Positions 20,341-46,196 of a stretch of 64,000 nt of DNA are shown piece after piece (positions within the stretch are counted from its first letter, which is position 1; each line of letters starts with the position of its first letter). The position numbers were made by a program, and so were the translations under genes. This DNA is from Dudresnaya verticillata (taxonomy: Eukaryota). The notes under the pieces are model-generated. The model was not told where the DNA came from, searched no databases, and saw only the letters and a program-made list of their open reading frames with translations. The stretch lies in the NCBI GenBank assembly GCA_977862235.1, contig OZ374564.1, forward strand, positions 2,170,001 to 2,234,000. The letters run 5' to 3'.

Positions 20341-20361
20341 GTAGCGTACGAAAAAGCCCGA

Positions 20362-20559
20362 TCGTCAGCATCAGCGAAACAACCCGCGTCTTCCATTCTA
20401 CGGAGAAACGTACTGCGCCGGGCCTTACTGCTTTGATACGGATGCATTACGAGGGGGTGGTCGTCAGCATCAGCGAAACAACCCGCGTCTTCCATTCTAC
20501 GGAGAAACGTACTGCGCCGGGCCTTACTGCTTTGATACGGATGCATTACGAGGGGGTGG
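20362..20559. repeat. Exact tandem duplication, 2 x 99 bp
   Basis: 20362-20460 is identical to 20461-20559. Confidence 0.95.
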
Positions 20560-20917
20560 TGGGCTGGGGGGACAGGCCGTGGCCACCGCCGGCGCGCAGA
20601 AAATGATGCGGAGGTACAGGCTGGCTGGTGGGTGGTGGATGGCGGGGTGGGCGTGGGGGTGGGGCTGATGCCCATGACCGCGGGTGGGAAGGGCAGTCCG
20701 TCAACGCGCTGGTGCACCCCGGATTATCTTCCCGCTGTTTGAAATTCAAACCGGTTCCGCACGGGTTGTTTGTCATGTTTTGGCACCGCCACCGGGTCGG
20801 ACAGGCGTAACGCCGAACGTCCAGCATTGCTGGCCTGTCGGGGGTGTGTGGGGGGCGCGGGACATGCGCCGTGAGAAGGATGATTAGGATGATTAGATGG
20901 AGGCAGGACACGCGTCC

Positions 20918-21035
20918 TTAGCTGGGGACGAAACGGATATGGGGCTCGTGATTGGCCGAGATCGGTCAGTCAACTATCTGGGGACGAAAAGAGTGGAGCC
21001 AATTGGATGCCAAGTTTAGCTGGAGACGAAACGCT
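20918..21035. repeat. Three spaced direct repeats TA(G/T)CTGG(G/A)GACGAAA
   Basis: Copies near 20918, 20975 and 21016. Confidence 0.7.
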
Positions 21036-21299
21036 ATTGATCAATCATCGGGCTAGGGACCAACTTGATTGAAACCCCTGGCACCCCGGGTGCCAAGGTA
21101 CATCCCCGCACCCCCTCCCCTTTTTTGAGTTTTTCATAAAACCCTTGGGGAGGCACGTGACCTTCACCCCTGTAATGCTCTAGTCTTGAAGCGCCTCCAA
21201 CAGTGCGGATCCGGAATCCCGGTACGCGAGATCTCAAGCTCTTTACCCATGTCCCCATACGGCGCCTAATATTTTCCCCAGATCACTTGATATATCCGC

Positions 21300-21950
21300 G
21301 CGCGCCAACCTTGTGTTATGATGCCGTTCACAGCGTTTCACCACGCCACCCCAATGCCCCGACATCGTCTAGCACTTCTCCCCCGCACAGTACAGTTTGC
21401 GCCCTCGGTAAGATGGGGAATACGCACACGCATTGCACACAAACTTCGCCCAAAGTTCGAAATGACCACCAGAACCACCGCCCTTGGCATATAAAAATCA
21501 TTCTCAGCTACATCTAAGAAGGCCCACCACGAGACTACGTACAATTCCACAATTTTACCACTGCACCCGCGATATACCCACCATCGTTTCCTTACTGTCT
21601 TCTCTTATGCTAGAAAACAGATATCGACAGAATTTGTATGCCATTTTGCGACGCAGGCGAGTGAGACGGATTTTCATCGCCATTCGTATATTATCCCTTT
21701 GTATTTGATGCACTGCGCTCGGAGTGGAGTCTAACACGGTACCGCAGGAATGTAACAGGATCCTCTGGTTCGAAGGGAAAGTATTCGCGACAGTCGATGC
21801 AGAGAGAAACAAAAAATTGTGGTGAAGTGAGTTCCGGTATCCAAGACGGTGGGAATGGATATAGTGCGACCTGAACCGTTGTGAGAGGTGTGAAGCATAT
21901 GAACGCGTACATGTACCCATATCGGTGTTGTGCTCATTCCTGTGTGCAAA
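21300..21950 (-). pseudogene. Fragment of unknown 'cargo A' gene
   Basis: RYRVRLHSERSASNTKG and RLTRLRRKMAYKF resemble YRVSFNGELLSNTRDG (37.6 kb) and LSLRRRQPLMGYMF (6.8 kb). Confidence 0.4.
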
Positions 21951-21959
21951 TGAGCATTC

Positions 21960-23259
21960 TTGCAGCTGTACATGTACAGCAGTGCAGCGCATCAACCTAG
22001 CGGAGGAGTTGTAGTGTTTATTCTTTATTTTTAGTGAGTATCTGTACAGTGTATAGAGTAGCGCGCCTGCCAATGAGCATTTCACGCATGTCCCTGTCGG
22101 AGATTGGGACCAGCAAGGCCGGTTCCACAACGGGGTCAGGCCATCAGGGTCTGACCCACACGGACCGGACCGCTCAGTGCCACCCTGACTTGTATATCAG
22201 GGCGGCACCACAGCTGCTCCTAAGATAAATGGACGAGCAACCCTTGATCCTCAAGGCGATTGCAGCTCTTTCCTTTACGGTTTTCCCCTCTCCGAGCCGT
22301 TTGTGGTCTACTACCACCACCGTTACGGATTCCTTCCCGGCACTTGTACCACCCCCTTGTCTGTTGCTTCCCAATACCGGTTTCGGTTAGCCGCTCGCTA
22401 GTCTCCCTGTCGGTGCGAACTGATCTACCGCCCTGCGGAGGTAGTGTCGCTCTCGTGCCGTGAAGGGAAGTAAGGCCAGCTGTCCGTTATGTGGTGCAAC
22501 GCCCGGGCTCCCTGGACATGGGTTTTGATAACCCTTTTTCTGTGCGCGACCATGCTCGTCCGCGACGCGCACTGGCAAGCTCGGATCACCCATTGGCCAG
22601 TGGTCAACCACCATAGCGGGCCCGCCGTCGTCTTTACAGGGCCTAACTCGCCGCGTTACAGACACCGCCACGCAATCGCGCGCACGACACGCGCAACACG
22701 CGTGAAACGTGCACACACACGCACGCGCGCGTCATTACAAGTCTTACATCGTTCTGGCGTCTGTGTACAGTAGGTAAACTGTGCTACTGTAGTGTTAGTT
22801 TGTTGTACTCTAGGGTTAGTTTATTTCCTAGTGTACAGTAGCCCTAGTCTCCATCGCCGCGGCGCCACTGCCGGCGGTGGGACTTAACGGGCTAGGAACA
22901 CCCTCCTACAGTATGCGTAACCAAGCTTTGGTACCACACTGAGGGTACCCCTACCTCCGTGCGCTTGGTAAGAGAAGCCATCGCGGAGCTAGGCTACGTA
23001 CGCCTGTGGTGCTGACACCTCTTCCCCTTCGTGCACACACGCTACGTTGTGCAGCGCTCTCGCCTTCAAGCACACTACGCGTTCACACTGGCTTCTGTGT
23101 GTGTTTACAGTCCGCACACTGGGGCCTTCCCCTTGCTCTACCCTACTACGCGCCGATGACCGCGGCTACCCTCCCACGCCGGACTCGTGGGTGTGCTGGT
23201 TGCGACCCTCACTCGGAGGGTTGCACTACACGTTACAGAATCGCGTGGGTTTCACTACA
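21960..23259 (+). repeat. LTR-like repeat, family D, interrupted by a solo LTR
   Basis: 22000-22400 aligns with 24220-24610 and the repeat ends CACTACA at 23259. The 5' boundary is approximate. Confidence 0.55.
22490..23230 (+). repeat. Solo LTR (741 bp) with TSD CGTTA
   Basis: TGTGGTGCAA...TTGCACTACA, with CGTTA at 22485-22489 and 23231-23235. Confidence 0.92.
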
Positions 23260-23386
23260 CCAAAAAAATGACTAAACCCCGTAGGGAAACCTCCTACCTC
23301 CTGATCCGAGGCTCAAAAACGGGAAGCAGGAGTTTCATTTAGGACCTTGCTGTGATCCGCAATGTTTGATCTCACTTTGATATAAC

Positions 23387-23757
23387 TGTGAAATAAGCGC
23401 TGTTAGCAAATCAATTCCGTGGTCCACGTCAAAATAATTGAGAAATACGAATTTCGAAGGGACTTTGTGATTACGCTTGCCACGGTGGCCCACTCATTTA
23501 TGCGCTGCACTGTATTCGAGATTTCTACAACCTATCATTCTTACCGCTCTTTCTTGCGCAAACGACTCTGAGGCCCACGGTGAGCGTGGCACGCTCAAGC
23601 GCACTGCGCCTCCGTATGCATTGCTGGTGTATCTTGTATCCCCCACCATACGCGAGACTACTGTTCGCAGGCTCCGAGGCCGTTGCGAATTAGCCAAGTG
23701 CGAACCGTCTCCCGGGTTGACGTGTATTAGTGCTCTTGTAGTAGTATTTATACAGTC
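23387..23757 (+). repeat. 5' part of an LTR related to 55355-56198
   Basis: Shares AAAATAAT.GAGAAATACGAATTTCGAA, CCTCCGTATGCAT and CGAACCGTCTCCCG. Cut by the family A LTR end at 23758. Confidence 0.8.
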
Positions 23758-24070
23758 TGTAGTGCAAACGTCCTGGATGAAACACCGCCGAGCAGTTCGG
23801 GGCTCGGTGGGTAGCGACGCTTTAGTCGGTGGGTAGCCGCGCTTCAGGCGGTAGTGGTAGAGAGGTTTACGACGCCTTGGGCAGACTTTAAACGCCCCGG
23901 GCGGAAATGAAGAACAAAAGAAGACAATAGAAAACACGTTATCGACGGGGGCTGATCGTGGAAGCCTGGAGAGCTGGACGCGTGAGCCTTGAGGCCAGCC
24001 GGTAGGTATGCATGGCGTGGAAGGGGTAGTCTGGACTAGAGCCGGCTTTCCGGGATTTACTCCAACGTGT
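23758..24070 (-). repeat. 3' part of a family A LTR
   Basis: TGTAGTGCAAACGTC...CACCGCCGAGCAGTTCGGGGCTCGGTGGGTAGC, as at 15202-15260. Confidence 0.85.
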
Positions 24071-24169
24071 GGTGAAGTGGCCGCTGTGAGATTCCCGACG
24101 CCGGTTGAGCCGACTCGCGACCGGTGCACCGGTGAGCTTGCGCCAAAAGCCGAAGCGGAGTGCAGCGGC

Positions 24170-24723
24170 ACCGTAGCACTGTATGCCTGGCTGGAACCTG
24201 CGGCGCCCACCAATCGGAACCAAGTTGTTGATTTATTTTTAAGTAGGTAACTGTAATTATTCTGTACAGTAAGTAGTGTAATGCCGGCCAATAGGAATGC
24301 CGAGCACGTCCACAACGTGGACTAGGACCAGTAGGGCCAGATCCATCCGATGGACCACACCCATCCGGGTCTGGCCCTCACGGACCGCGCCGCGGGGCAT
24401 CTCTCACACTATTTAATGTTTGGTCACCGCGGACACTGCAGTAAACCGGCAAGCAACCCTGGGCAAAGTCCTTTACCCTAAGCGTTATCCTCGTACTCCT
24501 TCACGGTTTCCCCGCACTAGTCCCGTCCACGGATATCTCTATCTCCGTCTCTGTGTAACTGCTCCGACACTGTACGGTTCCCCTTGTCCGTTGCTTCCCG
24601 TTCCTTCTTACTGGCAGCCCACGGTACTCCCTTCGGTCTACTAACTGAGCTCTACAACGCCTGTTTCGTTTGAACACTCCTTATTGGGATTGTCTGATCA
24701 GATCTCCTTACAGGTGTGCCTCT
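24170..24723 (+). repeat. Second family D LTR-like fragment
   Basis: Shares GGGTCTG.CCC.CACGGACCG and CCCCTTGTC.GTTGCTTCCC with 22147-22372. Confidence 0.55.
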
Positions 24724-25470
24724 TGTGGCAGAGACCTCAGGTCGAACTGATGTCTAGCTGCGCTGGTCGATCAGTCGCGTCCGGGCCCCTCGACGGTTCA
24801 TGGCAGCTGTGGTGATAGAGCGGGGGTGTCGGACGCGTGCGCCGTCGACGGTCACGGATCTACGGCGTCGAAGCCTAAGCGCGCACGGGGCGGACCGTAC
24901 GCGGGCGGCAGCAGCCGGACCACTGCGTCCCCGTCGTGTACGACGGCGGCACAAATCTGACGGTCGGGAAGGAAAGGGAAAGCATAGACGGTTGGAGGCA
25001 GGGGAAAGTCGTAGGGCTTAAGACTGGGAAAGAAACCCAAAGCAGAAAGGGACAACCCTGCGTTTGCTGGCTTGTCCTTGTTTACTCTTGCCCAGAGGAG
25101 CGACTACTAAATAGACTACAGTGCCCGCGACGGCTCCAACCTGGGAGGTGCGCCAGCGTGCCCCGATACGCGTCGACGCGTCCGGGTAACGGCAACCGGG
25201 GGCGCGCGTGATCGAAACGGTCCACACGTACTCAACTGTTGGACGCCGGAGTGTGCGCACGTGTGTCACCCACTCAATGGCTCTACGCCGGAGTTCATGT
25301 GCACGGCGCGCGGGACGGCAGGGCGCTCGACCGCCGTTTACACTAGACTGTACTGTACACTACAAAAAATAAAAGTACAAGTTACACGGGAGTGTCAGTG
25401 TCCCACACGTACACACGTACGTGCGGGCGCCACAGCGCACTTCCTTACAGTTCAGCGGGGCTTCGGCGAC
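24724..25470 (-). repeat. LTR, family C
   Basis: Reverse complement aligns along 19600-20340 and ends TGCCACA at 24724. The 5' end is approximate. Confidence 0.75.
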
Positions 25471-25631: not shown

Positions 25632-26030
25632 TATAACTCTCGTTTCCCGCGTTCCAGAATGTCCTCTCGAAAACAGACTGACATAAAACGCTTCGAAAGT
25701 ACGTGCGTTCGAAATGGGAGCATCCCCTGAGTACGCTAGTGCAAACGAAATGGGAAACGGAGGAGTAGTTCGTGCGTTATGCCCGTTTGCGGGTTAACCG
25801 CCCAGTGGGTCTGAAATAATTAATTTGTGGGTAATTTTCGAGAAAATGTAATTCATAAATCGAGGCAACCCCGGATACTTCCTTGGGCGCCTCACTGCCC
25901 AGTACACGCTGCTGCAACATTGCAGAACAACTCGTCAGTCCATCTTCGCGCACCCCTCAGCATGCAAAGTACTGTAGCCGTGCTATGACTTCCCTTCCTC
26001 ACCGCATTCCCACCTAACTTCGCGCATTAG
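25632..26030 (+). repeat. Terminal/subterminal block X
   Basis: Direct homology to 41121-41530 (GGAGTAGTTCG, CAGTGGGTCTGAAA, TACTTCC.TGGGCGCCTCA, TGCAGAACAACTCGT). Confidence 0.8.
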
Positions 26031-26199
26031 TCAGAGCTCAACAGCACGCTACATCATTCTCGCCGCGCTCTCTGCTGTTCCCTTGGATTCGGGACCGGTT
26101 CTGCGCCGCTGCGCTCGCGCGCTGCCCTCGCCCGCGTCACCGTAACCTCGGTTCGTTGTCCTCCAATAACCAAGCACACCGCCAGAGTACCACAATTCC

Positions 26200-28300
26200 T
26201 GTATCACCAACGCTACAAGTTGTGCTCGACAGTGCAACGGCATTCATGTAGCGCTTTTGCCATGGACTACCCTACTCTCCGTCTATCTACTGCATGCGGT
26301 TCGGAATGCGACCTGGGACCGATTTTTGTCCGACCTTCAGCGGGGTAACAATTGACACCTCGTTCCGTGCTCCGGATACATCGTACTCCGTCTGTGTGTT
26401 TCCTTTTACATGTAGCGAGCAGTAGCTCGCCAAACACAACCGTTGCCATCGTGACGCTGTAAACCACAAACGCCGACTTCTAGCAGTGTACCTGAACTGC
26501 AGTGCACTCAACACGCTCTCACATAATTTTCCGCACCATGCTTCCTTACTCGCGCCCGTTCCTGTCTTCAAATGCCTCAGCCTCATACACATACACAACT
26601 ATGCCCATCCTCAATTTTCATCAACTACAACTCCTCACTTTCCTTTACTTTATACCTTAGTCAGCTTCAGACTCCGGGTCTTCCTCATCCACGTCTACCC
26701 CCACCACCCCAATATAACCGCTATCCCCTCCAGCACCACTTTCACCGCTTCCCCAACTGCGACTGCATCCACGATCTTGAATCGCGCCCGCCCCACCAAG
26801 TCCATACGAAGACATATAGCATCACTGATGTGACGCCTGGCTCGCGCCCGAGCTTCCGCTAGCTTAGCGCGCAAATGTCTCTGGATCTCCATCACCAGTG
26901 CTTCCGGTACTTCACTACAACTCTCCATCTAAGTCGTCTTAACCAACCCTCACACCAGCACTGCATGGCTCCATTCTATAGACAGAACCGGACACCAGTC
27001 TGAACTTCAGTTGGCCTCGTTTACTCCAACTCTACACATCCTCGCCATGATAGCGACACCCCTGCAGCGTCGGGAATCGGTAACATCCGTACCGTACTTA
27101 GTCTCTGTATGTCAACCCTTTTGCAGACGCGTCGAGTCCCAATCGATGGGAGTCCCCGGTCGAGGCATGTTCTGAATGTTCATCTTTGAGATTCTGCGCT
27201 TATCTTCACGTACATTGCGAACTGCTGCCTAATACTGTCGACGTTTCCGTGCTGACATCTGATCCATTCCATAATCAGAGGGTTTGGAGTCACATCACGC
27301 AGCTTTTGCATTCCTCTCTCCCTTGCTTCTCTCAGGAAGCTGCTCAAGACGAAATCTTTCCCGCGCCCTGCCGCATTATACCCCCATCTTTCCCTATTAT
27401 ATTTGTCATAAAATTCTTAAAGACGGATCTGTCGCAGAGCTGGATCCCCAGAGTTTCTAGTCCGTCTATTTCCTTCCCTGATCCGCAGAAGTACATCAAT
27501 ACACCCTCAATTCTCGACGCCCCGATCCGTTTCACAATCTCGTCTGGAGGCTCTCCTTCCTTGCAAAAGTCGGCTATATGCAGACGTTCCATTTTCTCGG
27601 CCAATTCCACGACATCAAATGCTTCATTCTGCAACTATTTCACACATCGACTTTGCAAAGCCATAAAGGTATCCCTGCTCGATTTGGATATCTTCCGTAC
27701 TGTCATCCAAGTTCCAGGTACGTTTCGAGTGTAACAGCTTGCAGTCCTCAACAACTGAGCGTGAGCAGCTTCCGAGTCTCGACGAATGGTTCTGCATGTT
27801 GCCGTGCCCAGCTGAACATCACTGTGTCTGGCTGCGCTGTGCGCCAGAAATTGGGATCGTAAGCTGCTGTGAGATATGTACCACAGGTTATCTGGTTTCC
27901 GCTTCTCTCAACAAGGTATCTGGGAAAGAGCCGTGGTTAATCACATGTATTCGGGATTCGGTTTGCCCGCGTATTAGTTTTCACACGTGTTTGTACACCT
28001 TGCTGTCCTATATGAATTTCGTTGACGGGAATCAGATTCCCCCGTCCACCTCCGTTTCGGTTGCACTCGGACTGTACGGTCGTCCCGAGGGCAGTTACAT
28101 GACGTAAATACATGTGTCTTTATTCCGTCGTTGAAATAAAGCACCCAGGATCTCCTTCCGATACATGGTGTGATGCTCGTCTCCAAGGCGTAGACTATTG
28201 CGGTAGTCTGTGCGGTCAACGCGGGAATCTCACTTGCCACCTTGCACGCCTCTTCCAGGTTTGATTAAGTTCTTGACTTCTCTCGATAATCCTTCATAGC
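26200..28300 (+). pseudogene. Heavily decayed 'cargo A' gene
   Basis: ATWDRFL vs VPWDAFL, WPRLLQLYTS vs FPNLVKLYLS, and PSLDEW vs PSDIEW occur in the same order as in 7400->5774. Matches are short. Confidence 0.35.
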
Positions 28301-28328
28301 CATCTAGGTAATCACCGTCACATTCAGA

Positions 28329-30936
28329 ATGGGTGCTGGGAAGCGGAAGTCGAGAGGTGCTGGACATAACCAGACCCCTCGATCGACACAGACCGCAAAG
28401 GCTCTATTCGTCGACTTAATGGATGGTTCCGTCAACACAAGAGTAGAACCCGCTTCCTGTATTCCATTGACGGCCATTCGTCCTATTGTGAGGTCTGGAG
28501 TGGAGCGATTAAAGGCGGGCTTTGATGTGTCGCGCAAGGACCTCCACGATCCTCGAGCTATTGAAATTGGATATTTTCCTGGCTCTGACGCTCCCATTGT
28601 AACTAAAATGTCTGGGTTGTTTCTATATTTTGGTAATTGATCACTTACAAAAAAGTTGAACAAAGACGGAACGTCATGCTCGCAAAAAGAATCCATGGAA
28701 ATGTCAAACAATCGGGCGAAATGTTATGGAGTAGTGGACTGGATTCACATGCTTATAGCTATCATTGCACTTCGGGAGGAGGATTACGAGACCTGGAAAA
28801 CTTTGTCATGGCCTCTTACTGTTCTTAGAGGAAGCCATAAACTGCAGCCACGTCGACAATTAGCTCGTCACCAGAATGACAAGTCCGATTCTTCATTCTA
28901 CATCGAGACTACTTCCTTCGAAACTCCTCGTGGCCTGAGAGAGGAGGAAGATCGTCTCACAGAGGTGAATGGCGGGAAAATTACGAATGCCGCCAGAATT
29001 GCTGACGCCTATGACGGATGCAACAATTTCAGTGACAATACTGTTAAACAGACTGCCCAGACTGTCCTTAGACTTTACCACGCAGAAATTGACACAATCG
29101 GAGACATCATTAATGAGGAAAGGGAGGGCTGATTTGGTGTCGATTCGAACTACAGCTGTGGATCACAAGGACATCAGTAAGAGTGCGAACTGTCGAGTGT
29201 ACCGCAAGTTCATCCATATAACATATCCCAAGTCCGCTACAGTGTTCATGAACGCGTCGAAAGCCCCGGATGGCGTACAAGCAGAAATGGCGACTTTATA
29301 CCGTTTGAGAGAATTGCACCGTTTACATAACTTCAAACCGCTGTCTTACCGGTAAACCGTGGAACATTTTCAGAAGGCCTCCGCCGATTTTCGCGAGGTG
29401 ATAAGTTTGAAGCTCTCCGGGAAAGTGACGAGTGGCCAGATTCAATGCAGGTGCTTCACTCGAACCTTCTCAACACACAGAAGATGGATGATGAGGTTGC
29501 GGAAAATATAGGAAATAAAAAGGACATTAAGGCATCTATACTGGAATTGTACAGGGATGTCTGTCCCCAGAAAGCTTCTGTTAAGGAGAGAAATCGCGCC
29601 GACTTGCTTAAGAGCATTGGAGGAAATAAGACAACACATGGTTCAAGACAGTGTCCAGATAATGCCTCTCTGGAAGAGCCGGACTTGCACTGTGATAGTG
29701 CCGAGCGCAATGATTGTGGAGATACCACTCCTTCACCAAAACCCGGGGCACATGTTGATAAACAGGATTGCAAGTCTGTCGCCGCTGGATGTCTTGACAG
29801 TACTACTAGTTCCGGAACAAACACTTCAGAACGGCAGGAAAAAGAGCAAGAATCACTAAATGAGGATGGGAACGGTGGTACAACATATGAAAACGAAAAG
29901 GGGACCTCCAATAGCCAGGCTGGAGACACCGGGGAGGCCACGAATGGCCATCTGGAAGGAAATGCGAAAAATACCCGATCGTCCGCGTCTACCATACAGT
30001 CTGAAAAGCTCAAAACATTAGTTACGGAAGGCGTCGATGTATTGAATTCAATGACGATCAGTTGCCACCACATGAGGTAGAAGGCGTATGACAAGTCTGT
30101 TCGAAAAGACGCGAGTCCACTATTCGACCTCGTACGCACGGACCCTCCGTACTGAATACCGCCTATTTGTTCGAATGCTGGTACATCTTACGACAATTAA
30201 ATCAGCGATGGGGAGATTAAGCAACTCATCGCATTCTGTCCAAAGGTCGTTAAACCCGGTCATTGGGTTTTCATCTTCTGCAGTTTCACTAACGTCGCGA
30301 AGTATCAACGAGCTCTGGTTGATGCTGGGTTAGACTGGCCATAATATTCCTTCACTGTTTGCAAAGATACGAGGGCATTTCAGGGACATCTAAATGACAA
30401 CCCACAGAATGCTACGGAAATAGCCGCATTTGGTCGCCGTCGGGGAACGTACGGGGAAACCTTCAAGCCTGAACTCTCCAGTCCACTTCACGTCTTGGGA
30501 AGAAAAGATCGAAAATGTTCGCAACATTCTCAAGTGTTCCAGTATCGAGACAAAAGCTGCTGAATCCAATGCCCAAATCCCCTGTTCTGATAGAGGAGAA
30601 GAACGTGTTGGCTCTGATGGAGGTCATGAAATTTTCGGTACCGATGCTGGACGCGTTTTAGATGCCTACGGAGGTACCCTGACCACTTGCATTGCAGGAT
30701 TGAGAACGGGGCGTCCGACAGTGGGCATGGAGCAGAACCCCGCAACATTCAAGCCGGCATATGTTCGCTTGAAGAAAGTCGCAGTCGATGTGTGTAATGA
30801 AAAGCAGCGCTCTTTCCTACTCACTGTCGCCAAACAGCAACACCGTGAAACGACTACTGATACTGATTCCTCTGAGAAGAGACGGAAGGGAGTACCGAAT
30901 CAGGAAAATGTGATAACATCAACTGTAACAGACTAG
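28329..30936 (+). pseudogene. ParB/Srx-like domain fused to a beta-class (N6_N4_Mtase-type) DNA amino-methyltransferase
   Basis: N-terminal IRPIVRSGVERLK...PIV...YGVVDWIHMLIAI (28725-28760; each deviation from DGxHRL is one base). C-terminal FDLVRTDPPY (DPPY at 30141-30152), KVVKPGHWVFIFC, EEKNVLALMEVM and GRVLDAYGGTLTTCIAGLRTGRPTVGMEQ (motif I at 30655-30687). Multiple stops and frameshifts. Confidence 0.85.
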
Positions 30937-31047
30937 CAACCCGCGAAACAGGAACCAAATAGTCCGGAAGGCTCTGAATCTGATCCTCTTCGGGGTGCTT
31001 AGAAGGTATTTCTGCTTCAAGACGGAGGTAAATTTGGAACAGTATCT

Positions 31048-32119
31048 GTGCAGTGTAATGCTGAGAATTCCAAAATGACTGAGACTCTCCAAGGAGTGTC
31101 ATTGTCGAAGTTTTCGAGGGAAGGAGAACATCTAGTTTCTCTTTACGAATTCAGCGCATTATCTGGATGTGAGTCCCGGAAGTATCCGTGTAGTTTCACT
31201 GGCCAAGAGGAAGTACCAGAGGCACCGAGTGGTAGGCTGGTGGGGTTCTTCGGATGGGACTTGCACAAGTTGGAATCGGTTTATTAGTACGACATTACGG
31301 TCTGAGCAACCTCCGAGATGCAGATTGGGTATAATCGCCGGGCACGAGCTTTTCAGAATCCTCCGTTCGCAGTATTTATTCCAGATCGAGTGCGGCTTTA
31401 CTTCCATGGCCTTGAGATTCCTGTAACGTGGACAACGACATGCAATATGAACTCCTCAGATGTACAACGCGACTGAATTCCGAGTCTTGACCCCTCGACC
31501 ATGTTGCGTGAAGTTCAGAAGCTTCGGACAGAGGTTCGTGAGATGCTGTCGTTCATTGATGAGGCACCAATGCGCCTGGATGCCATTTATAGCGATTTTT
31601 ACCGCATAAGAAAGGTGGTTGTATAGGTGCTGAGGTTTCCAAGGCAGGATCGAGACAGACTACGTTCAGTTGAAGAAAGGTTGGGAATTGAACACATAGA
31701 AGAGGTGGAAATCGAGTTGGATTCAGGTCCAGAATCAAAACGTTTAGCCCCTCCCGTGTGAGCGCCATTGCACTGCACACCGAAGTGCGCAGTGATAAGG
31801 GGCTGTAAGAGAAATCAGAATGACGCGTCAAACGCTCCCGGAGCTGAGAGGTAAGATTGACGAACTCCGTCTGCAGGCTCACCAACTTCGAACGAGAGCA
31901 AACTATCTCGATGAGCAACTCAGAGCAGTTGCACAAGCGATGAGGGAGATTGTGTATGGTGAAGGTAGGAGAGCTGCTAACGGGCTGAGCATCATTAGAG
32001 GGAGCATTAGGGCCCTATTAAGGACGATTAAGAGAATGTATGGCCCACTACAGAACGAACAGAACCCCGGTTTGGATGGGGGGATATACCGGAAATGTTT
32101 AGCCTTCGGCAATCGTTAG
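31048..32119 (+). other. Cluster of short degenerate ORFs including coiled-coil-like peptides ('cargo B')
   Basis: 31820-32119 is heptad-rich. Weak similarity in layout to 758-1800. Confidence 0.3.
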
Positions 32120-32566
32120 AGTGATCCTGTGTCTCGCGAGAAACTGCAGTTAGTACATGCTCTGAAATAGAAACTGCGTTCTGTTGCATCCTTCTATGTC
32201 GTTTCACGTTCGAGAATCACGACACGCACCCGTATCCGTGCTTGAAATGACATAAGTACGAACCCTCTCACTATTCCCATGGCCACCAAAAGCAGAGAAG
32301 GGAACAGACAGTGCAATCGACGGTAATGCCGCGGAGGACGACTCCTTGGGCTGTGCGCTGTGCGCAGGAAATTTGGACTTGCGAGTACGTTTCTGCTTCA
32401 CATGGGCGCCGGCTCGAAACCCGACGCGGGTTCAGCAACTATAGCCTCGGCGCGAACAGGAAGAACCGGCCGCAGTGTGCATGGCGCGCGGCATGGTGCG
32501 CGAGGTGCACGCACAAATCTGGCGACGAGCGCCGACCGGAGGCAGAAGGTGTAGACCGAGCCCCGG

Positions 32567-32872
32567 ATAGGTTTTCATAGCATGACCTTGCAGAAACCTA
32601 AAGACTAACATGAATATTGACGAATAGGTTTTCACGGCGCGCGAGATCGAATATCTGCTTAATAGGTATTTCTACACTGAATCTGGAAATGCCTATATAG
32701 GTATTTTCCAAATCACTTTCACAAAACCTAATAGAATAGGTTTTCCTGTCGGCGCGTCAGAAATAACTTTATAGGTATTTGTAAGCACGCAAAAAGAATA
32801 CCTATTAGAAAGGTTTTTGCGTCGCCGGGTCGAGAAAACCTAAAATCTAATATCAATATTGCCGTATAGGTC
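32567..32872. repeat. Array of ATAGGT(T/A)TT motifs in both orientations
   Basis: About ten TAGGT/ACCTA cores in about 300 AT-rich bases, as seen in subterminal transposase-binding arrays. Confidence 0.7.
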
Positions 32873-34203
32873 CTGGCGGCTCGCATTCCCAGAGACATAT
32901 CCAGCCCACATATGTGGCCGCCCCATGGGCACCTCGGATGCATACCGGAGAAACGTCCGGTGGCCGACTACTCCCGCATACCAGTCGCGTCGAATGTCCT
33001 CACCGTTTCCTCGCCGCCGCGCTTGCTGCGCATCCCGCGTTCTGACTTGTTCGCCTCGGAGACTGTGTCGCGCTGGCGGCGGAAGAGGTGTTCCTGTCGA
33101 CGCATTCGGTGCCATGGGTTGAAGCACGGGTCGTCGGAGTGACTTCATCGTGGAACATCGCACCGCGTGCTACCAACCGCGTCAAGCAACCTCCTCTCCG
33201 CGCCGCTCTCGTAGCTACCATTTTCTGTTGGTTGTGGCGACACAATCTCACCCTCCCTGTTAGAGGCATGCCGAACAATGCATCGCTCATTCTAGATGGC
33301 TTTGTCCAGTCGTGTGTTTATCCCGTCGTACACTACGGTAGTAACCACCGACTTGCAGGGCCTGCAGCAAACCGTATACGTCGTACTCGCTGTTGATGCC
33401 CTGGCGGAATACTATGAGAACTTCTGCTGTGCTTCTGATATTGCTTTGGGGAATAACCTATGGAGTGAGTGAAGATGTAGAAGAAAACCGAGAGTAACAG
33501 CGACGACGAGGATGTGGACAGAGGTGATGAAGTAGGTTTTCTTGTCTTGAAGGAAGAGGGACTTGGATGCATTTGTCGATGCCATCCAATACTTGAGCAC
33601 AGTTCGGACGCATTATGCGTCGCAGTATGGGGCGCACTGAAGCCATTGCGGTTGTGGGCGTCAATGCTTTGACGACACGCATTTTCTTCCATTTTGCGCG
33701 ACCGCTACGAAATGAGATCAATCGTCTCGACGCTACAAGCTGTACCTGGGCTCCTCGAAAATACTTTTCTCTGGCACTGCGCTCAGAGTATGAAGCACTA
33801 GAAGAACGCATGACTTCACTCGGGCGCACGCTACCGAGTCTTACCGAACCCCGACGGGCGCTGCTTCTTCCCGACCATCGCGTGTGTATCCCCGTTATTC
33901 TCGACCCGATTCTGATGGATGGACCACTGTTCTTGATTCCCATCCGCCCGCTCCTCCGTCGGCTTTGTGCCCAGATGTAACCGACACTGCGATGCCTGCG
34001 GCTGAGTAATGGAAGAAAAAACAACCCTCTTTCAAAAATGCCCTCGTCCGGACATCGTCTTTGCACTTCGTATCCCCACCGTCAAATATATTCCAAATTG
34101 TCTTCGTGCGGACTGGCACGCTTAATGCTTCCATCTTTTTAACCGATTCGCAGTCGCATCTACATGTACTGAAAAAGAAGAACGCTTCGCTCGTGTTTGT
34201 GCT

Positions 34204-36465
34204 GTGGCAAAGCTCGTGCTGCGGTTTAATGGACGCGGAGAACCCAGAAATGGCAATAAGGCTGCACTGATTCGCCGTTTGCGTGACCGCATTCAACTGG
34301 CAATTCGCGGGCAATGGAATGACCTTTGGGAGCAAGCCTCCAGTGCCTTTCCCTCGCTTCCCAATACTTCTTGCCAACCTACAGTTGATCCTTTCCGCCA
34401 ATGCCGTCGGTTTATGGTCGAGGGGGCCATCAGTAAGGCTGCACGCGCTTTGTGCTCTACTACTTCTACTGTTATTGCTAATCCCAATACCAAGACGGTC
34501 ATGGAATCTCTTCACCCGCGTCAAAAAATTCCAGTTAAACCCCGCTTGCCACAATCACTCCCAGCTGCATATACATTCAACGAGGCGGATGTAAGACGGG
34601 CTCTTAGAAGTCTTCCAGTACACAGCTCACCTGGCCCGGATGGTCTCCGTCCGCTTCATCTTAAGGCGTTAACGCATGCCCCGGGTGGTTCGGAGCCATC
34701 CCACTCTGCAATCGTGGCTCTGACCGCCTTTGTCAACAAATGTGCTACGGGCTCTTCACCTCCTCGCTACAGTGCCTGGTTTGGGGGTGCCTTGCTTCTG
34801 GGTCTTCCGAAGCACCCATCGTGTGTTTCTAAGCTTCGTCCTATTGCCATTGGTGGCATCCTTCGTCGTTTCGTTGCCCGCCTGTTGATGAAGAAGATTG
34901 CCCAGGACAATGCTATTCGTGAATACCTTCTTCCTCATCAATTTGCAGTGGGGATCCCTCATGGAGCCGAATCTATTATTCACGCCATACGTTCTTTCGT
35001 GGAGTCTAATACTGAGCAAGACTATGTCCTTCTTAAGCTTGATGCCACCAACGCTTTTAACTGTGTTGAGCGTTCTATTATTCTCAGTGAAGTTATCAAA
35101 AGAGCTCCTGGCATTGCAAAGTTTGTGCATTTCCTTTTCTCGACTGAACCCGTTCTTCTATTTGGTCAGTTTCAGTTGTTCAGTCGGACAGGTACACAGC
35201 AGGGTGATCCCTTGAGCATGCTACTTTTTGCTCTTGCGATTCATCCCCTGCTCATCAACATGCTCTCTACGTTCGCCTCCATCAAACTTCTTGCTGCATA
35301 TGCTGATGACATTCATGTTGCTGTTCCGCGTTCTATTGCTTTCGATGTTATCCAGTTTCTAAAGACCCAAGGCCCCAAAATTGGTTTCAATCTGCACATA
35401 GCAATGGGGAAAACAGAAGCTTGGTGGCCTTCTTTATCGTCCCGTCGTGTTTCTCGTTCCCACTCCCTAGGTTGTCCTATCAAAAATCATTCTTTTATCA
35501 CAGTTCTGGGCGCCCCTATTGGCAGTACTGAGGGCTGTTTACAACATCTAAGAACTAAGCATGAGCCCATCAAATATTTCTGGGCCCAACTGAAGCAGCT
35601 TAATGATCCTCAACTCGGTTTTCATTTATTACGGTACTGTGCTGGAACTTCCAAGCTTTCATACCTACTGCGATGCACTCCCCCGCAACTAACCCAAGCC
35701 ATTTCATTAACACATGACTGTGGCATGCGTGGAGTGTTTGAACACACACACTTTCCACTGTCGGATGAATCCTGGGATATGGTTTCGCTTCCCATGCGAC
35801 ACGGTGGACTAGGTCTTACAAATGCCCGTCACATTGCCCACTGCAGCTATATCACCTCCGTCTTGTCCTCTCTCGCCTGGATTCGATGCCTGGTACCTTT
35901 TGATTCTCCTGCTTTGCACCATTTCCTCGCCCCGTCTCTTCATAACATTAGCGAACAGCAACTACTCCATGAAGATCGTGAAAAATGCAGTGTTTCTTCT
36001 ATCTTGTCGGCCGCATCTTCCATAGGCCATGGTGTCGTTCCCGCATTGTCCCAAGATCTTCTTCCCTATATTCAACGAAAATTGCGACACGACCTCATGT
36101 CCCAGATGACTACTCAGCATAGCTCTCGTGCTCGAGTACGGATTCAATCTACCTATACTGTCAACTCTAGCCGCCCTTTCAGTGCCCTCCCATATGCATC
36201 TTCTTCTACCCGCGTGCAACCCGACATATGGCTCACCATGCTCAAACTCAGACTGGGTGTGGCGATCTTCCGTGGTGATCGCCCTTTTCCTGCTTGTCTC
36301 CATGGCACATCCGCTGAAGTTCCACTCCTTGATATCTTTGGACACCATGCCACAATCTGTCGATCGGGAACTGGCAGCATTCGCCGCCATGATACCCTCC
36401 GAAATCAACTTGGGGCTTTTTTTCGTAATACTGCTCGGAACCATGGCGTTACTGTTCAGCTTTAA
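34204..36465 (+). CDS. Reverse transcriptase of the CRE-like element (open fragment of a disrupted ORF)
   Basis: SSPGPDG, LRPIAIG, QFAVGIPHGAE, LDATNAFN, GTQQGDPLS, AYADD, GGLGL and DIFGHHATIC...RRHD. Confidence 0.9.
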   Translation: MAKLVLRFNGRGEPRNGNKAALIRRLRDRIQLAIRGQWNDLWEQASSAFPSLPNTSCQPTVDPFRQCRRFMVEGAISKAARALCSTTSTVIANPNTKTVMESLHPRQKIPVKPRLPQSLPAAYTFNEADVRRALRSLPVHSSPGPDGLRPLHLKALTHAPGGSEPSHSAIVALTAFVNKCATGSSPPRYSAWFGGALLLGLPKHPSCVSKLRPIAIGGILRRFVARLLMKKIAQDNAIREYLLPHQFAVGIPHGAESIIHAIRSFVESNTEQDYVLLKLDATNAFNCVERSIILSEVIKRAPGIAKFVHFLFSTEPVLLFGQFQLFSRTGTQQGDPLSMLLFALAIHPLLINMLSTFASIKLLAAYADDIHVAVPRSIAFDVIQFLKTQGPKIGFNLHIAMGKTEAWWPSLSSRRVSRSHSLGCPIKNHSFITVLGAPIGSTEGCLQHLRTKHEPIKYFWAQLKQLNDPQLGFHLLRYCAGTSKLSYLLRCTPPQLTQAISLTHDCGMRGVFEHTHFPLSDESWDMVSLPMRHGGLGLTNARHIAHCSYITSVLSSLAWIRCLVPFDSPALHHFLAPSLHNISEQQLLHEDREKCSVSSILSAASSIGHGVVPALSQDLLPYIQRKLRHDLMSQMTTQHSSRARVRIQSTYTVNSSRPFSALPYASSSTRVQPDIWLTMLKLRLGVAIFRGDRPFPACLHGTSAEVPLLDIFGHHATICRSGTGSIRRHDTLRNQLGAFFRNTARNHGVTVQL

Positions 36466-36507
36466 CGCAACTTTTCCTACCTAGAGGAGACTGGGGATTC
36501 CCGAGTT

Positions 36508-37014
36508 ATGGCGTCTTCTGCACGCACTGCTTCAGAAAGGCGTCGCGATTCCCGTCAATTACAACGTACTGAAGACCGTTTCGAAGAAGACCGACGTGAC
36601 CATCTTCGTATGGATCTCTATGTTGATGACCCTGCGTTTGCTCCCCTCCCGCAAGCATTTGACGTCTCCGTGGTGACACCACACCATCCAACTACACTGT
36701 CCAAAACGCCTCGCTCTCAACATCAAGCTATTCACCGCCGCGAGCAAGCTAAAGCCCGTCATTATCGTCGCTTATGTTCCACTAACCGGATAGAACTCCA
36801 TCCTATGGTGATGGACATCTATGGTGCCATTGGTTCTGGGTTCGATCGAGGCGCTCAACGCGTGGAGAATTTCCTAGCTGCTATGAAGGGCACTTCGCCG
36901 ATATCTGAGAAACTATCTCTTCTCACGCACCTCACCTCTCTTGTACTTCAATCTGTCGCGGTGGCTGTTAACCGCCGTTTACTCTTCGACCGTCGCCTTT
37001 CAGATGCGTTTTAG
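36508..37014 (+). CDS. Restriction-like endonuclease C-terminus, frameshifted from RT
   Basis: RMDL..., FDVSVV, RREQAKARHY and HPMVMDIYGA. Confidence 0.8.
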   Translation: MASSARTASERRRDSRQLQRTEDRFEEDRRDHLRMDLYVDDPAFAPLPQAFDVSVVTPHHPTTLSKTPRSQHQAIHRREQAKARHYRRLCSTNRIELHPMVMDIYGAIGSGFDRGAQRVENFLAAMKGTSPISEKLSLLTHLTSLVLQSVAVAVNRRLLFDRRLSDAF

Positions 37015-37149
37015 ATAAGCCCCCTTACGGGGCTGTAGTCTTTCCTATGCATAAAGGTCTCCATCTCCATTTAAAACCAAGCAGGAGGTCTTCGCGTACG
37101 TATTACAAAACACAAGCCTTCCTTGCATACCTTAAGGGACAGCGTCATT

Positions 37150-37750
37150 GCTGCTGTTAGCGGTTGCCGGCCATATTGCCTCAGGTACAAACAGTTTCAG
37201 TGTAGCTGTTCGTCTGCGTTTCGCCAACGACAGATATCAGGGATATGAATATAAGCCGGCTAGGCGAGTCAAAGACGCAATGGGATACGGCAATGAGTCC
37301 ATGAGATGAGACAATGACCGCATGGCATGAGATGTGGGTATCGTCTAGTGGAAGTACGGCAATGTGGATTTCTATGCGCATGTCACGCGACCATCTAGAG
37401 ATACTAAACCTTTTGCAATACACTTCTGGAAACCACAACGAGCGCACTTTGAAATACAAGTTGTTCCTAGTGCATGCGATAAAGCGGTATGGGTGTGCCA
37501 AGATGGAAGTTGAGAAATTGTTTTGTCGTGCTCGCAATATGTATATACACGAAGCACGAATAGTTTCCGTCGCGGGTATTAGATAGCAATTCGCCATTGA
37601 AAGAGACACGGTAAGCCAATAGTAGCCTGATCCTCATGAAAACTCTATAGAGCTTCATGGAGAATGTGGCTTTTGACGCAAATGCCACAGAAGCGCAGGT
37701 TTGTAGACAGGTTGTGACTTAAAAAGCGGGAACGTCGTCTTTCGTAAGAC
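37150..37750 (-). pseudogene. Fragment of unknown 'cargo A' gene
   Basis: YRVSFNGELLSNTRDGNY resembles YRVRLHSERSASNTKG*Y at 21.7 kb. Confidence 0.35.
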
Positions 37751-38129
37751 GTAAGGGCGGGAGATGAAAGCAACTGGCCATTGTCAAACGAGTTGATTTG
37801 CGGAGGTACAGGAGCATTCTGACAAGAGAATGAAGGACTAATACCTCAATCAAACAAAGCTCTTAGCCACAGCCAGCAAGACGTGTGCTGTCACTATCTC
37901 CACATCGTTAATGTTTTGTGTGTCACACTACTCCAACCGTCTAACTCGCAGCCTGAGAGAAGAGCAAAGCCACTCTCCCAACACGCGCTTGCCCGCGACC
38001 GCCAACCGCAAATGCAGCAGGCTCGCAATGCGCCCGCTGTCAGACTGGAGCTATCTTGATGGCTCTCTTCAATGTGAGTAGATTCCAAATGATCCACCAG
38101 AAGCGTTAAAGGTTCAATGGCCTGTATTG

Positions 38130-41117
38130 CTACGATTTCTGTAGGTAGTCTCGGATATTCTTCTTAACTGTTTGGGGCAGTAATCTATTAGAGAGCTTCT
38201 CAAGCGCAATGAGGACAGACGCGGCATCCACATCGTCAGTCCATACCTTCTTGGTTCTGGCGTAGACAGCATGTGCGATATTTACCGTCCCACGCGTCCT
38301 GCCCTTAACCAACCTCATACCACCTGATTGACGGGGTGCACACGACTCCCGCGCTATCCTTCTTCCAGCCCTGTACCTGCGCGATCCAGAAAGGCACAAT
38401 ATTGTCCTTAATTTTCAGGACCACGAAACGGTTGACCCCATACGTCAAGTCAGCACGCCGAGCATCATGCTCAGCGTCATCCTGCTCGTCGGCGTCTCTA
38501 TCTGCATCCTCCACCAGTTCCCTATCGCTTTCAACAACTTGCTCCAACTTTCTATATACACCCTTCTTCTCGAATACCTGTGTCAGGTCCCAATGCAGAG
38601 GCTCCTCGAGATCGCGGAAGACCTAATCGCGCAATGTTTGCAACTCCTTTAGCTTCGCAGAGTCATTGATTCGTAGCTCCTCTGAGCGTAAGCGCTTGCT
38701 TACTTCGTCTTTGTCTAGAGGGGAGATCATCACAGTGGCAGGTGTCATTTACAGCTCGGGTGGCAATAGTAAGAAACTTGTTGAGGTCCCTTCGTTTTCA
38801 GCGGCCCCCACGAAGCCTTGCAACCCACTCTCACTTTACACCTCGTCTTTTAATAACCTGTAGTAGCGTCCAGTTCCGATCGTGAGAATTTGAAGTAGCG
38901 AAATGGAGAGAAAGTCTGAACACCGCCAATACATTAATCCTGTTTGCACAGTCCTGACTAGTTCGCGATGTGTCGCATGCGCGTTGATATGGGCTCGGAG
39001 GGGCATGACTGACGGAGGTACTCCATCAAGGCCTGCATGGTTACTGCGTCGTGACCCGACGCCTCCTGGAGGTGCAACTAAATATTTGATCGATGTTGGC
39101 ATGTGTGTGCTCGATTGGCAAGAGACACATATGCACTTCAGTGATAACCACCCACTATACAAGCGACTCCAAGTATGCGAGTAGGAAACTGTCTTTGTTC
39201 TCCCGTGTTCAGTTGTCTCCATGTATAAATAGAGTGCCCCGCACTTCCCCTGTATCCCATTTGGTTGCTAACAGGCGGTGCAAAGCCTCAACGATATGGT
39301 TTGCACCGGATTCGAACTCGGCAGTCATTGTTAATAACGAATATAGATCTGCAGCCCCGTGGTCCAGTACTCCTATTAGCTTAGCTGACAGCTCGTGACC
39401 AGTTGTAGCTTTGGACCTGACATGGAAGTTTGGCATACCATACGCCGATTGACCTCCACCATCACTAATCATTGAGCAATACCATGTCGGCGAGAGTTTT
39501 GCCATGTCACATTTCTTCCGGTACGCGATTCTCTCCAGCCTTACCATCTCTATATGGCGCCTGCAACGTTCTCGCAACCCCTCTGTCGCCGTGTGGTCCG
39601 CACCCCCAGACGTCATACCGGCAAGTTGGTCCCTCACAGTCTCTCACTCGGCACACTTCGCAAATCGGTGCTTTTTGGGCACTTTGATTCTTGAACAATT
39701 TGTAGTCCAAATGGTGTAGAAGTAACTCTGAGGGGAGGCGTCTTTCCTCGGTGCAATTTGGAAAGCTCACGCACAAATACCTCGTACACCACCTATTTCT
39801 GAAAGAAGCGGAGATGGAGCTCGTCTCTGTCTAGAATTGCGTCAGATGTAGCTTCTGATAACCTCTCTAAGAAACTCACAATACGTTCAAGAGCGTCTGT
39901 TGAAGAATCACAAAGGCTCCTGCCCGGGGACAGCGCTCCTTCGGGCCTGTCTCTTCCCTTTCGTTGACGATTTAAAGTCTCTCGAAAATCCAAATGCCCG
40001 TTCCAGAAACGTGTAACATACAGGTCTGCCATTGCGGAAATACATATTAGAGTCGGGTTCCACGAGGCTTCGTAGATATGCCCACCGAACTGCTCCGTTC
40101 ATTCCAATGGTACCCCTCGCTTATTCCTGAAGCATGGTTTCGACTGACAGGATATCCATGAAGGAACCTTTTTGCTCTCAAGGTCTTCCAGCCGTTTAAG
40201 GCGCTTGTTGGCCATCAAAGGTGCACTACGGTTGCCGTTCGGCCTGCTGTTATAAATGCAGCATGGCTTCTGCCGGGTGTGCTCTTGTGCTATGTCCACA
40301 TCCCCCTCTTCCCGTCCTGGGCTACCAGCATCATTTTCCTCCCTACGAGGGATGGGCGCCTTCTTTATTTCAACTGGTCCTTCTGATTCCACACCCTCCT
40401 CCTCTTCCGGAGTATCGTGATCGTTGCGGTCGGCCTCCGGTACGTATGCCTCGTCGCCAGCTTCTTCTGATTCCGAAGCGTCACGCGTACTCCTGTGCAT
40501 TTCTGTTCCGTTGTTTTGATGAACAGTCTTAGTCTATCTGCAATATTTGAGATCTCTGTTTGAGGTCGCCATGGCGGTCTGTTTCGAGGTGTGTATTGCA
40601 GAGGTGATGCTGATAATACTGGCGGAGGTGTTGTTTCCAGGGAATCGACAGTCAGCCTCTTTCCTCGTTGGCGACCCTTAGGCGGGGTTTTCACACAACG
40701 TTCCTTCCCGGGTAGACGGATCGCGGGGAGGGGTATGTCTCCTCTAGTACTGGAGCGGGCGGCGACATGTTTGTTGCGCAGCTGCGCCACATCCCAGACA
40801 TTTATTCCAACCTCAAGACCGCGAAGAGTAGCAGGTGGATCTTCGACGCCCTTCTAGGTGTAACGGTAAGTATTCGAAGAAAAATCTTCTTATATCTTCT
40901 CCTTGTAAATGACCGCCAATGTTTGCCCTTCCTCCTCGACCTGGTGCAGATAATGCCCATGTAGTCTAGTGCAATAGCAACCTGTGCTGTCAGCTGCAAT
41001 AGCCTCTGGAGGGGCGAGTGGCTCAATGCTGCGGACTATCAGACATTTGTCGAGCAACTGAACACGCCTTCGACTAGGGGAAGAAAGAATTTCCTTCTCA
41101 TTATTACCTTCAAGCAC
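38130..41117 (-). pseudogene. Sola-like transposase copy 2
   Basis: ISDGGGQ, FESGANHIVEALHRLL, HGDN*TRENK and C-terminal PFWIAQV...RWYE. Close nucleotide homology to 43984-46196. Confidence 0.85.
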
Positions 41118-41120
41118 CGC

Positions 41121-43983: not shown

Positions 43984-46196
43984 ATGTCAATGTCTTCAGT
44001 TGGGATGCCTGAAGGCAACGAGGGGAAGGAATATGTTACTTCCTCTACTCGAAGCCGTGTTCAGTTGCTCGACAAAGGGCTGATAGTCCGCAGAATTGAG
44101 CCGCTCGCCCCGCAAGAGACTAGTGCAGAGGACAGCACAGGATGCTATTGCACTAGACTACATGGGCAGTATCTGCACGAAGTCGAGTAGGAAGGGAAAA
44201 CATTGGCGGTCATTTACAAGGTGAAGATAGAAGAAGAGTTTGCTTTGAAGCCATACCGTTACACCTATAAGGGCGTCAAAGATCTTTCTGCTACTCTTCG
44301 CTGTCTTGAGGTTGAAATGCATGCTTGGGACGTGTCGCAGATGCGCAACAAACAGGTTGCCGGCCGCTCCAATAGTAGCCCTCACACACAAACCCCCGCG
44401 ACGCGTCTAAACAGTCGTAAACAGGCCGTTAAAACACATACCGAGGCTGGGACACGAGGAAAGAGACTCACTATGGATTCCCTGCAAACAGCACCGTCGC
44501 CGGCATTATCCGCGTCACCTCTTCAGTACATACCTCGAACCATACCTGCATGGCGCCCTCGGCCACAGGTTTTAAATCTGGCAGATGGACCTACTCCGCA
44601 AGCCGAAGAATCTATTGACGAGGAATACGTACCGGGGAGTGAGTGGGACGATAAAGATACGCTTTAAAAGGAGGCGGGGGCTGAAACAGAAGGACCAGTG
44701 GAACCAAACGCAGTGTCCAGCCCTCCTGGGGAGGAAAATGATGCTACTAGCCCAGGGCCAGAAGAGGGAGATCTGCACAGAGCACAAGAGAACACCCGGC
44801 AGAAGCTAAAACCCCTAAAACCCCTAAATAGACGGTACGTGTATCTGAACAGGCCGAAAGGAACTCATTCCGTTTCTTTGATGGCCAACAAGCGCCGTAA
44901 ACGGCTGGAAGACCTTGAGGGCACAAACATGGATCGTGGGTATACTGTTAGTCCAAACAATGCTTTGTAACAATCGAAAGGACATATGTTCAGGAGGAAG
45001 CGAGGGGTACCATTGCAATGAACGGGGCAGCTCGGCAGGCATATCTACGAAGCCTCTTGGACCCAACTCTAATATTTACTTCTTCAACGGCAGACCGCTG
45101 TGTTACACGTTTCTGGAACGGGCTTTTGGATTTTCACGGAACTTGCAGTCTTCAACTAAAGGGACGAGACAGGCCCGAAGGCAGGCAGTCCCCGGTAAGA
45201 GTATGCGAGATGCTTCCACAGACTCTCTTGAACTCATTTTGAGTCTCGTAGACAGGTTAGTGGCAGCTACATCTGACGCAATGCGCGGCAGAGACAAGCT
45301 CCATCTGCCCTTCTTTCAAAAGCAGGCGGTTTACGACGTCCATATGTGAACTTGCGAAATTGTACCCAGGAGAGACGCCACCCTCTCAGAGCTACTTTTA
45401 CACTGTTTGGAATACACATTTCGCAAGGATCAAAGTGCGCAAAACGTACCAATTCGCGAAGTGTGCCGAGTGCGAGACTGTGAGGGACCAACTTGCCCGC
45501 ATGACCTCAGGGGGTGCGGACCAGACGGCGACGGAGGGTTTGAGAGAGCGCCGCAGGCGGCATCTAGAGATGGTAAGGCAAGAGAGAATCGAGTACCAGA
45601 AGAAATGCGACATGGCAAAACTGTCTCTGGCAAGGCTATTGCTCCATGATTATTGATGGTGCTGATCAATCAGCTGACGGTCTACCACACTTCCATGTTC
45701 GATCGAAAGCGACAACAGGCCACGCACTGGCAGCAATATTGATAGGAGTGCTGTACCACGGCTGTGCAGACCGATTGTCATTATTAATACTGACCGCTGA
45801 GTTCGAATCCGGTGCAAACCATATCGTTGAAGCGTTGCACCGTGTGTTATCAACCAAATGGGACAGAGGGGAGGTGCGTGGTACTCTATTTCTGCAAGGA
45901 GAAACTATACGAGAGAGCAAAAATACGTTCCTACTCGCCTACTTGGAGTCACTCATGTCGTGGGGGGTATTCACTGAAGTTCATATGTCTTTCTTGCAAA
46001 TCGGGTACACACCTGCCGATATTGACCAAAAATTTAGTTGGGCCTCCAGGAGGCTTCGGGTCCACGACTCAGTCACCATCTAGGACTTGATGGAGGAATG
46101 TCGTCAACCATTCACCCCCGAGCCGATAGTGACGCGCATGCGACACATCTCGAACTGGTCAGGACTCTGCAAACAGGAAAATGTAATGTGTGGGTT
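43984..46196 (+). pseudogene. Sola-like transposase copy 3, 3'-truncated
   Basis: FAKCAECE, IIDGADQ, RESKN and GYTPADIDQKFS. Homology to copy 2 ends near 46196 at Gypsy 2. Confidence 0.85.

Follow-up and report, generated by a model that had tools for sequence, protein, structure and literature searches.

A dead gene for a predicted ParB-like domain fused to a DNA methyltransferase, likely from a large transposon, in the genome of Dudresnaya verticillata

The methyltransferase pseudogene and its surroundings

The window analyzed here is a stretch of 64,000 nucleotides of Dudresnaya verticillata (contig OZ374564.1, positions 2,170,001 to 2,234,000, forward strand), and all coordinates given below are positions within it. 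The window consists of repeat-rich eukaryotic DNA with chromodomain gypsy elements, three DUF7869 genes and a LINE-like reverse transcriptase at 34126, in agreement with the eukaryotic mobile-element setting proposed in a preliminary description of this DNA made from its letters alone. Fragments of a mitochondrial-carrier gene (115-609, + strand) and of a WD40 gene (41660-42163, - strand) lie among the repeats. The gene studied here and the motif array downstream of it comprise the following features:

28329..31287, + strand: pseudogene with ParB-like, beta-class DNA amino-methyltransferase and C-terminal beta-barrel parts, about 980 codons, colinear with homologue P0005
28401..29603, + strand: ParB-like region, a predicted nucleotide-binding domain and a helical region (homologue model, Foldseek, viral ParB/Srx matches)
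29604..30020, + strand: polar low-complexity linker (composition; poorly conserved against homologues)
30021..30780, + strand: beta-class N6/N4 DNA methyltransferase domain (motifs; homologues match PF01555 and phrog_67)
30967..31278, + strand: C-terminal, mostly beta domain of about 105 aa with no Pfam family (19-homologue profile, E 3.3e-15)
32567..32872, both orientations: (A)TAGGT(W)TT motif array, candidate subterminal binding sites

The intact homologue P0005 (1015 aa) was aligned with the window from the ATG at 28329 to position 31281, with 353 identities in 958 (37%; tblastn E 3.6e-105), and covered the whole pseudogene with no need of an intron. An intron considered near 28611-28640 was ruled out, as the P0005 alignment continues through it. 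In the same alignment, which was carried across frameshifts, four frameshifts are located near 29125, 29400, 30512 and 30643, and eight stops at 28638, 29353, 30078, 30153, 30198, 30342, 30934 and 31000. The methyltransferase gene is therefore dead, as the preliminary description had already stated; the end that it gave, 30936, falls about 350 bp short of the actual one near 31287. A profile of the family scored 627 bits on the X-read window copy and -4.8 on the reversed sequence, a match far beyond chance. Thus, 28329..31287 is one real, single, dead gene, colinear with its homologue, with three domains and 12 lesions. The GC content of the methyltransferase segment (47-49%) lies within the range observed along the window (46-64%).

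Several other repeats were observed in the window. Directly past the motif array lies the LINE-like element (33000-37014, + strand; RVT_1 E 4.5e-11), whose C-terminal D...DV pattern has what we take to be the look of a CRE-type endonuclease. A 5-kb segment at 20058-25041 is flanked by inverted repeats (20084-20252 and 24813-24987, 77%); an end related to that of this segment is found at 16383-16693, and 99 bp are exactly duplicated in tandem at 20362-20559. At 15901-16600 there is a cluster of ACACGTG, six in 400 bp, possibly another subterminal array.

Domains and homologues of the encoded protein

All the beta-class methyltransferase motifs listed in the preliminary description were recovered in the order given there, distributed over three frames. 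Based on six-frame translation, FDLVRTDPPY lies at 30123-30152 (DPPY at 30141-30152) with a stop directly after it, KVVKPGHWVFIF starts at 30243 in the frame of the ATG at 28329, a second frame contains EEKNVLALM, from about 30593, and a third has VLDAYGGTLTT...TGR...VGME beginning at 30655. Motif IV (DPPY, 30141) thus precedes the SAM-binding motif I (DAYGGT, 30661), which is the beta order. The broken pieces of the window copy matched Pfam N6_N4_Mtase below its cut-off (E 0.0057 and 0.027; 17.1 and 14.8 bits) and no ParB family, and the window's own methyltransferase piece retrieved no PDB sequence. In contrast, intact homologues reached 46-49 bits on PF01555 against a curated cut-off of 26.7 (P0005, E 3.7e-12), and homologues matched phrog_67 in PHROGs (E 8e-21). 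When the family profile was searched against PDB sequences, beta-class adenine enzymes came out on top (5hek, 4.7e-19; CcrM, 1.4e-9; RsrI, 6e-5), with the 4mC enzymes far lower (PvuII, 0.0037; N4CMT, 0.084). From these sequence comparisons 6mA appears a likelier product than 4mC.

Concerning the N-terminal half, the AlphaFold model of homologue P0075, built with an alignment of 85 sequences, had a pLDDT of 94. A Foldseek search of the PDB with this model returned ParB or Noc proteins as all of its top 11 matches (probability 0.92-1.00; best E 0.0023, TM 0.29 by query, 226-315 columns), so the ParB-like N-terminus of the preliminary description holds. Sulfiredoxin (Srx) and PadC ranked below ParB/Noc. 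Viral ParB/Srx proteins dominated the named BFVD matches of the model, and the Atlas pointed in a similar direction. No Foldseek match of the model reached E<=0.001, and the assignment to ParB therefore rests on the agreement among matches; window pieces and/or homologues gave no ParB family match in Pfam, PHROGs, NCBIfam or PDB sequences. The N-terminal half is thus predicted to adopt a ParB/Srx-type fold closest to ParB/Noc. GxxRxxA is the nucleotide-binding arginine patch of ParB clamps. At the corresponding site near 28737 the window copy reads DWIHMLIA where P0005 reads DGTYRLIA, and the patch is therefore damaged in the window copy. GxxR is present in 23 of the 55 full-length homologue rows, the four nearest relatives included, and absent from the other 32. 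The linker that follows had been described as acidic and of low complexity; the low complexity was confirmed, and the acidity proved to be only mild, with 42% of S/T/G/N residues, 17% of D+E and 10% of K+R.

The C-terminal domain is modeled as mostly beta (pLDDT 81). A profile built from 19 homologues, window sequence excluded, matched the window at exactly four places, one in the tail of the methylase gene and one at the start of each of its three DUF7869 genes (2171-2485, 40770-40997 and 44035-44352; E 1.9e-14 to 3.4e-19). Among the full-length homologues the domain was found in 15 of 55 rows, most of these 15 having helped to build the profile. A fold search with the domain gave nothing significant, only weak eL27-like ribosomal, MazF and PWWP barrel rows (best E 0.29). 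A resemblance to the C-terminal domain of plant En/Spm TnpA (DUF8039/Transposase_23) was considered; none of 23 members gave a Pfam match of that type at E<=0.5. Some relatives (P0023, P0028 and L001:1665-3128) have a cysteine-rich, PHD-like tail where others have the barrel, so this end of the protein carries a swappable module. Neither this domain, nor the link to DUF7869, nor the existing description of this architecture in algal transposons figured in the preliminary description.

Relatives of the gene were collected by several routes. When the N-terminal 267 residues served as query, two relatives were recovered among 2569 candidates, and one cluster contained intact 1015-aa proteins. Using P0005 as query, phmmer retrieved 963 clusters with E<=0.001, of which 137 reached 1e-30; 151 homologues were examined, namely 150 listed of these 963 clusters plus P0002, and the 22 homologue clusters that were looked up all lie on contigs shorter than 15 kb. 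In 54 of the 151 the N-terminal regions and the methyltransferase occur in one reading frame, the rest being partial by the coverage rule, so the fusion of a ParB-like domain and a methylase in a single gene, which had been proposed from the window alone, is found in intact form elsewhere. Neither the 740-residue X-read nor a two-sequence alignment retrieved a further relative in word-index searches. Pattern scans, in which only close relatives are detectable, found none in viral contigs or in 185,579 prokaryote genomes; a metagenome scan with P0005 found none either, and one with a seven-sequence alignment found two short loci, with no transposase in either. Concerning phages, the best 20 of the 74 matches of P0005 are confined to the methyltransferase, with 20-28% identity, and none of the 74 records covers 80% of P0005. 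From these comparisons, the horizontal origin suggested in the preliminary description would apply to a distant ancestor only.

In a FastTree phylogeny, P0015, P0005 and P0016 form a group with the window copy (99% support). These three keep both GxxR and DPPY and, together with P0017, are intact and intron-free with both motifs present. Since DPPY is kept in the nearest relatives, this lineage is predicted to be probably catalytic, and the enzyme was probably maintained in it. The wider family presents a different picture: among 55 full-length rows, which are the top of one search, motif IV reads DPPY in 12, DPPF in four and SPPY in none, and 39 lack the motif. On a quick tree of the N-terminal half the motif label changes eight times, at least four of the changes being forced by strong branches, and the SAM-binding motif is kept in 27 of the 36 scorable rows without motif IV. 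Open frames of some full-length relatives may be young pseudogenes. A joint loss of GxxR and DPPY was also considered; the raw counts were strong (12 rows with both, 28 with neither, 11 and four mixed), but independent pairs did not support it (four to six pairs, median p 1).

The DUF7869 genes, an inferred inversion and the motif array

The DUF7869 genes of the window, one of them in two pieces, are located as follows:

2078-5226, + strand: decayed DUF7869 gene, starting with the domain common to the methylase tail
38927-41536, - strand: decayed DUF7869 gene (copy B), starting with the same domain
25639..26032, - strand: piece A, the 5' upstream region of a DUF7869 gene, cut at 25639, 74% to the upstream region of copy B
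44000..46188, + strand: piece C, decayed DUF7869 transposase-like coding region (PF25273 E 1.7e-22), with the shared domain at 44035-44352

All three genes show a CxxC followed by D...DNC...GHTHxD, which we take to be the build of a Sola-like transposase. From this build and from the dispersed copies, DUF7869 would be a Sola-like transposase; a literature search on DUF7869 found no publication. Piece A, which shows no codon-position bias and is divergent from the methyltransferase gene, corresponds to copy B up to copy-B position 575 (74%), and piece C corresponds to it from position 578 (80%), so that the two abut within 3 nt. AGTT is present at both cut ends (25635-25639 and 43998-44001), the likely inversion breakpoints, which fall a few nucleotides before the probable ATG near 44005. 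By our own arithmetic, the chance of such abutting on a reference of about 2.6 kb is well under 1%. Pieces A and C are therefore likely to be one DUF7869 gene split by an inversion of about 18 kb (25639-43999), or else the split reflects a misjoin. With the inversion undone, the methyltransferase gene would lie head-to-head with the split DUF7869 gene, with 2.3 kb between it and piece A. No methyltransferase gene accompanies the other two DUF7869 copies.

The array sits 1.3 kb downstream of the methyltransferase gene and contains nine of the ten TAGGTWTT matches of the window, in which 2.05 are expected overall; ATAGGT occurs eight times in 400 bp, where no 6-mer exceeded six in 2000 shuffles. 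These repeats are likely candidate subterminal binding sites. No second TAGGTWTT array was found in the window, nor were terminal inverted repeats or a target-site duplication for the methylase element, which is cut by other insertions.

The regions on either side of the gene were also inspected. The 2.3 kb between the divergent genes (26033-28328) gave no Pfam match in six frames and contains, at 27782-27808, 27 bp that weakly match the DUF7869 upstream region in inverted orientation. A candidate promoter motif common to the methylase gene and copy B was borderline (score 43 against a shuffle maximum of 42), and that between the methylase gene and piece A was not significant. Between the gene and the array, two short and partly broken frames with a coiled-coil look (31330-31760 and 31820-32170, + strand) gave no family match; they are possibly further accessory genes.

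Related systems and proposed role

The gene is a new, dead example of a kind of accessory gene recently described in algal transposons. In the available part of its description, the accessory gene of Ectocarpus Sola1-1_Ec32 encodes a ParB-like domain and an N4/N6 DNA methyltransferase in about 1100 aa, lies opposite to the transposase strand in a giant DNA transposon and was proposed to bind and modify its own element (PMC12477816). Genes of this type unite the two domains within roughly 1000-1100 aa, and the gene reported here (about 980 codons; 1015 aa in P0005) agrees with this in domain content and size. The opposite-strand arrangement holds here only after undoing the inferred inversion and if DUF7869 is a transposase. 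Elements of the Sola1-1_Ec32 type have terminal inverted repeats and a 4-bp target duplication, whereas neither was found for the window element, whose copy of the gene is dead and which is itself broken up. The portion of the Sola1-1_Ec32 description at hand makes no mention of a C-terminal domain common to the transposase N-terminus.

In Bostrychia as well as further red algae, methylase (PF01555) and ParB-like domains occur on Plavaka DNA transposons in the genes PAG2 and PAG3; inverted-repeat arrays lie beside the ParB-bearing PAG3 in Bostrychia, and such genes are shuffled among transposon families (bioRxiv 10.1101/2025.02.11.637652, available part). As described there, PAG2 combines the methylase with SET and PAG3 combines ParB with a 2OG oxygenase, whereas the window gene joins ParB and methylase in one protein. 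Neither SET nor oxygenase was found by Pfam in P0005, PF01555 being the only match on P0005 and P0014, and no Plavaka transposase was found near the methylase gene. Table 6 of the preprint may already list the ParB-methylase architecture.

The N-terminal fold of the homologue model is like that of the bacterial ParB/Noc CTP clamps, at 11-14% structural identity, and the beta motif order and DPPY are those of N6-adenine enzymes (DpnA-type 5hek, CcrM, RsrI, MboIIA). The gene differs from these proteins and from phage ParB-methylase loci in its extra helical region, its linker, its barrel and its eukaryotic setting; moreover, no match among the best 20 of the 74 from phages spans both halves. Chlorophyte-type Dam with a ParB-type HTH is also a prokaryote-derived amino-methyltransferase of eukaryotes, yet it belongs to the non-permuted M.EcoKI/M.TaqI group, unlike the window gene (PMC4738411, in the part available). 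Bdelloid N4CMT is prokaryote-derived too, but its motif is SPPY, it carries a chromodomain and it works for the host (PMC8885841, available part).

We consider it fairly probable that the dead gene comes from a large cut-and-paste transposon and that the intact protein bound the array of its own element and N6-methylated adenines of that element. By analogy with bacterial ParB, the ParB-like half would load at the TAGGTWTT sites and spread along the element as a CTP clamp; the methyltransferase would write 6mA along it. By such marks the element could be recognized as self, which would favour its expression or set the timing of its transposition, and through the shared barrel the methylase and the transposase may be brought to a common partner or site.

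Unlikely, though the most probable of the alternatives, is that the protein chiefly helped the transposon structurally by binding DNA, to hold its ends or to regulate the promoter of the transposase, with methylation dispensable: the 39 of 55 full-length relatives without [DNS]PP[YFW] keep long open frames, the motif label changes repeatedly on the tree and most scorable motif-less rows retain the SAM-binding motif. Against this, the window copy and its nearest relatives retain DPPY and motif I, and the structural and enzymatic roles are compatible. It seems still less likely that the gene belonged to another mobile element (e.g. Mutator, Plavaka or a non-autonomous one) and lies near piece A by a nesting accident or a misjoin. 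The 2.3 kb without Pfam match between piece A and the ATG and the missing element ends would fit this, as would the movement of such genes among transposon families (bioRxiv 10.1101/2025.02.11.637652, available part); but pieces A and C meet to within 3 nt and each cut end carries AGTT, the divergent orientation matches the Ectocarpus layout, the C-terminal domain of the methylase gene recurs at the start of the DUF7869 gene, and a misjoin would still leave piece A adjoining the methyltransferase gene.

That the product was N4-methylcytosine, as for bdelloid N4CMT, we regard as improbable. Some DPP(Y/F) beta enzymes make 4mC, and PF01555 spans both chemistries. The Ectocarpus paper, in its available part, leaves the product open (PMC12477816); yet adenine enzymes top the ranking of the family profile, and the motif here is DPPY and not SPPY, the latter being that of most N4C enzymes and DPPY that of N6A enzymes (PMC8885841, available part). 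Bacterial, phage or giant-virus DNA, present as contamination or as a recent insertion, is very improbable. Although no intron is required, both domains are of prokaryote type and the homologues derive from metagenome and Logan contigs, the gene carries 12 lesions, its GC content fits that of the window and its neighbours are chromodomain gypsy, LINE-like reverse transcriptase, mitochondrial-carrier and WD40 sequences. The phage records and the pattern scans of viral contigs and prokaryote genomes given above also argue against it. The likelihoods stated for these readings do not all concern mutually exclusive ones.

It is rare for a transposon to bind and modify its own DNA: VANDAL is the sole established case named in the available part of the Bostrychia preprint (bioRxiv 10.1101/2025.02.11.637652), the algal ParB-methylase genes being so far predictions, and a literature search found no functional test of a ParB-methylase transposon protein. 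Far more tentatively than our reading of the single gene, and with considerable doubt, the family could be a widespread one of transposon-borne ParB clamps that carry a 6mA writer over their own element, dock the transposase via the shared barrel and have repeatedly turned into methylase-dead scaffolds, which would make it a self-marking and end-holding system of active and pseudo-enzymes. A single dead copy adds little by itself. What can be tested are the additions made here, namely intact homologues with both motifs, a candidate binding motif, a domain common with the likely transposase and a count of catalytic losses; of these, the shared C-terminal domain and the frequency with which the catalytic motif has been lost most deserve to be followed.
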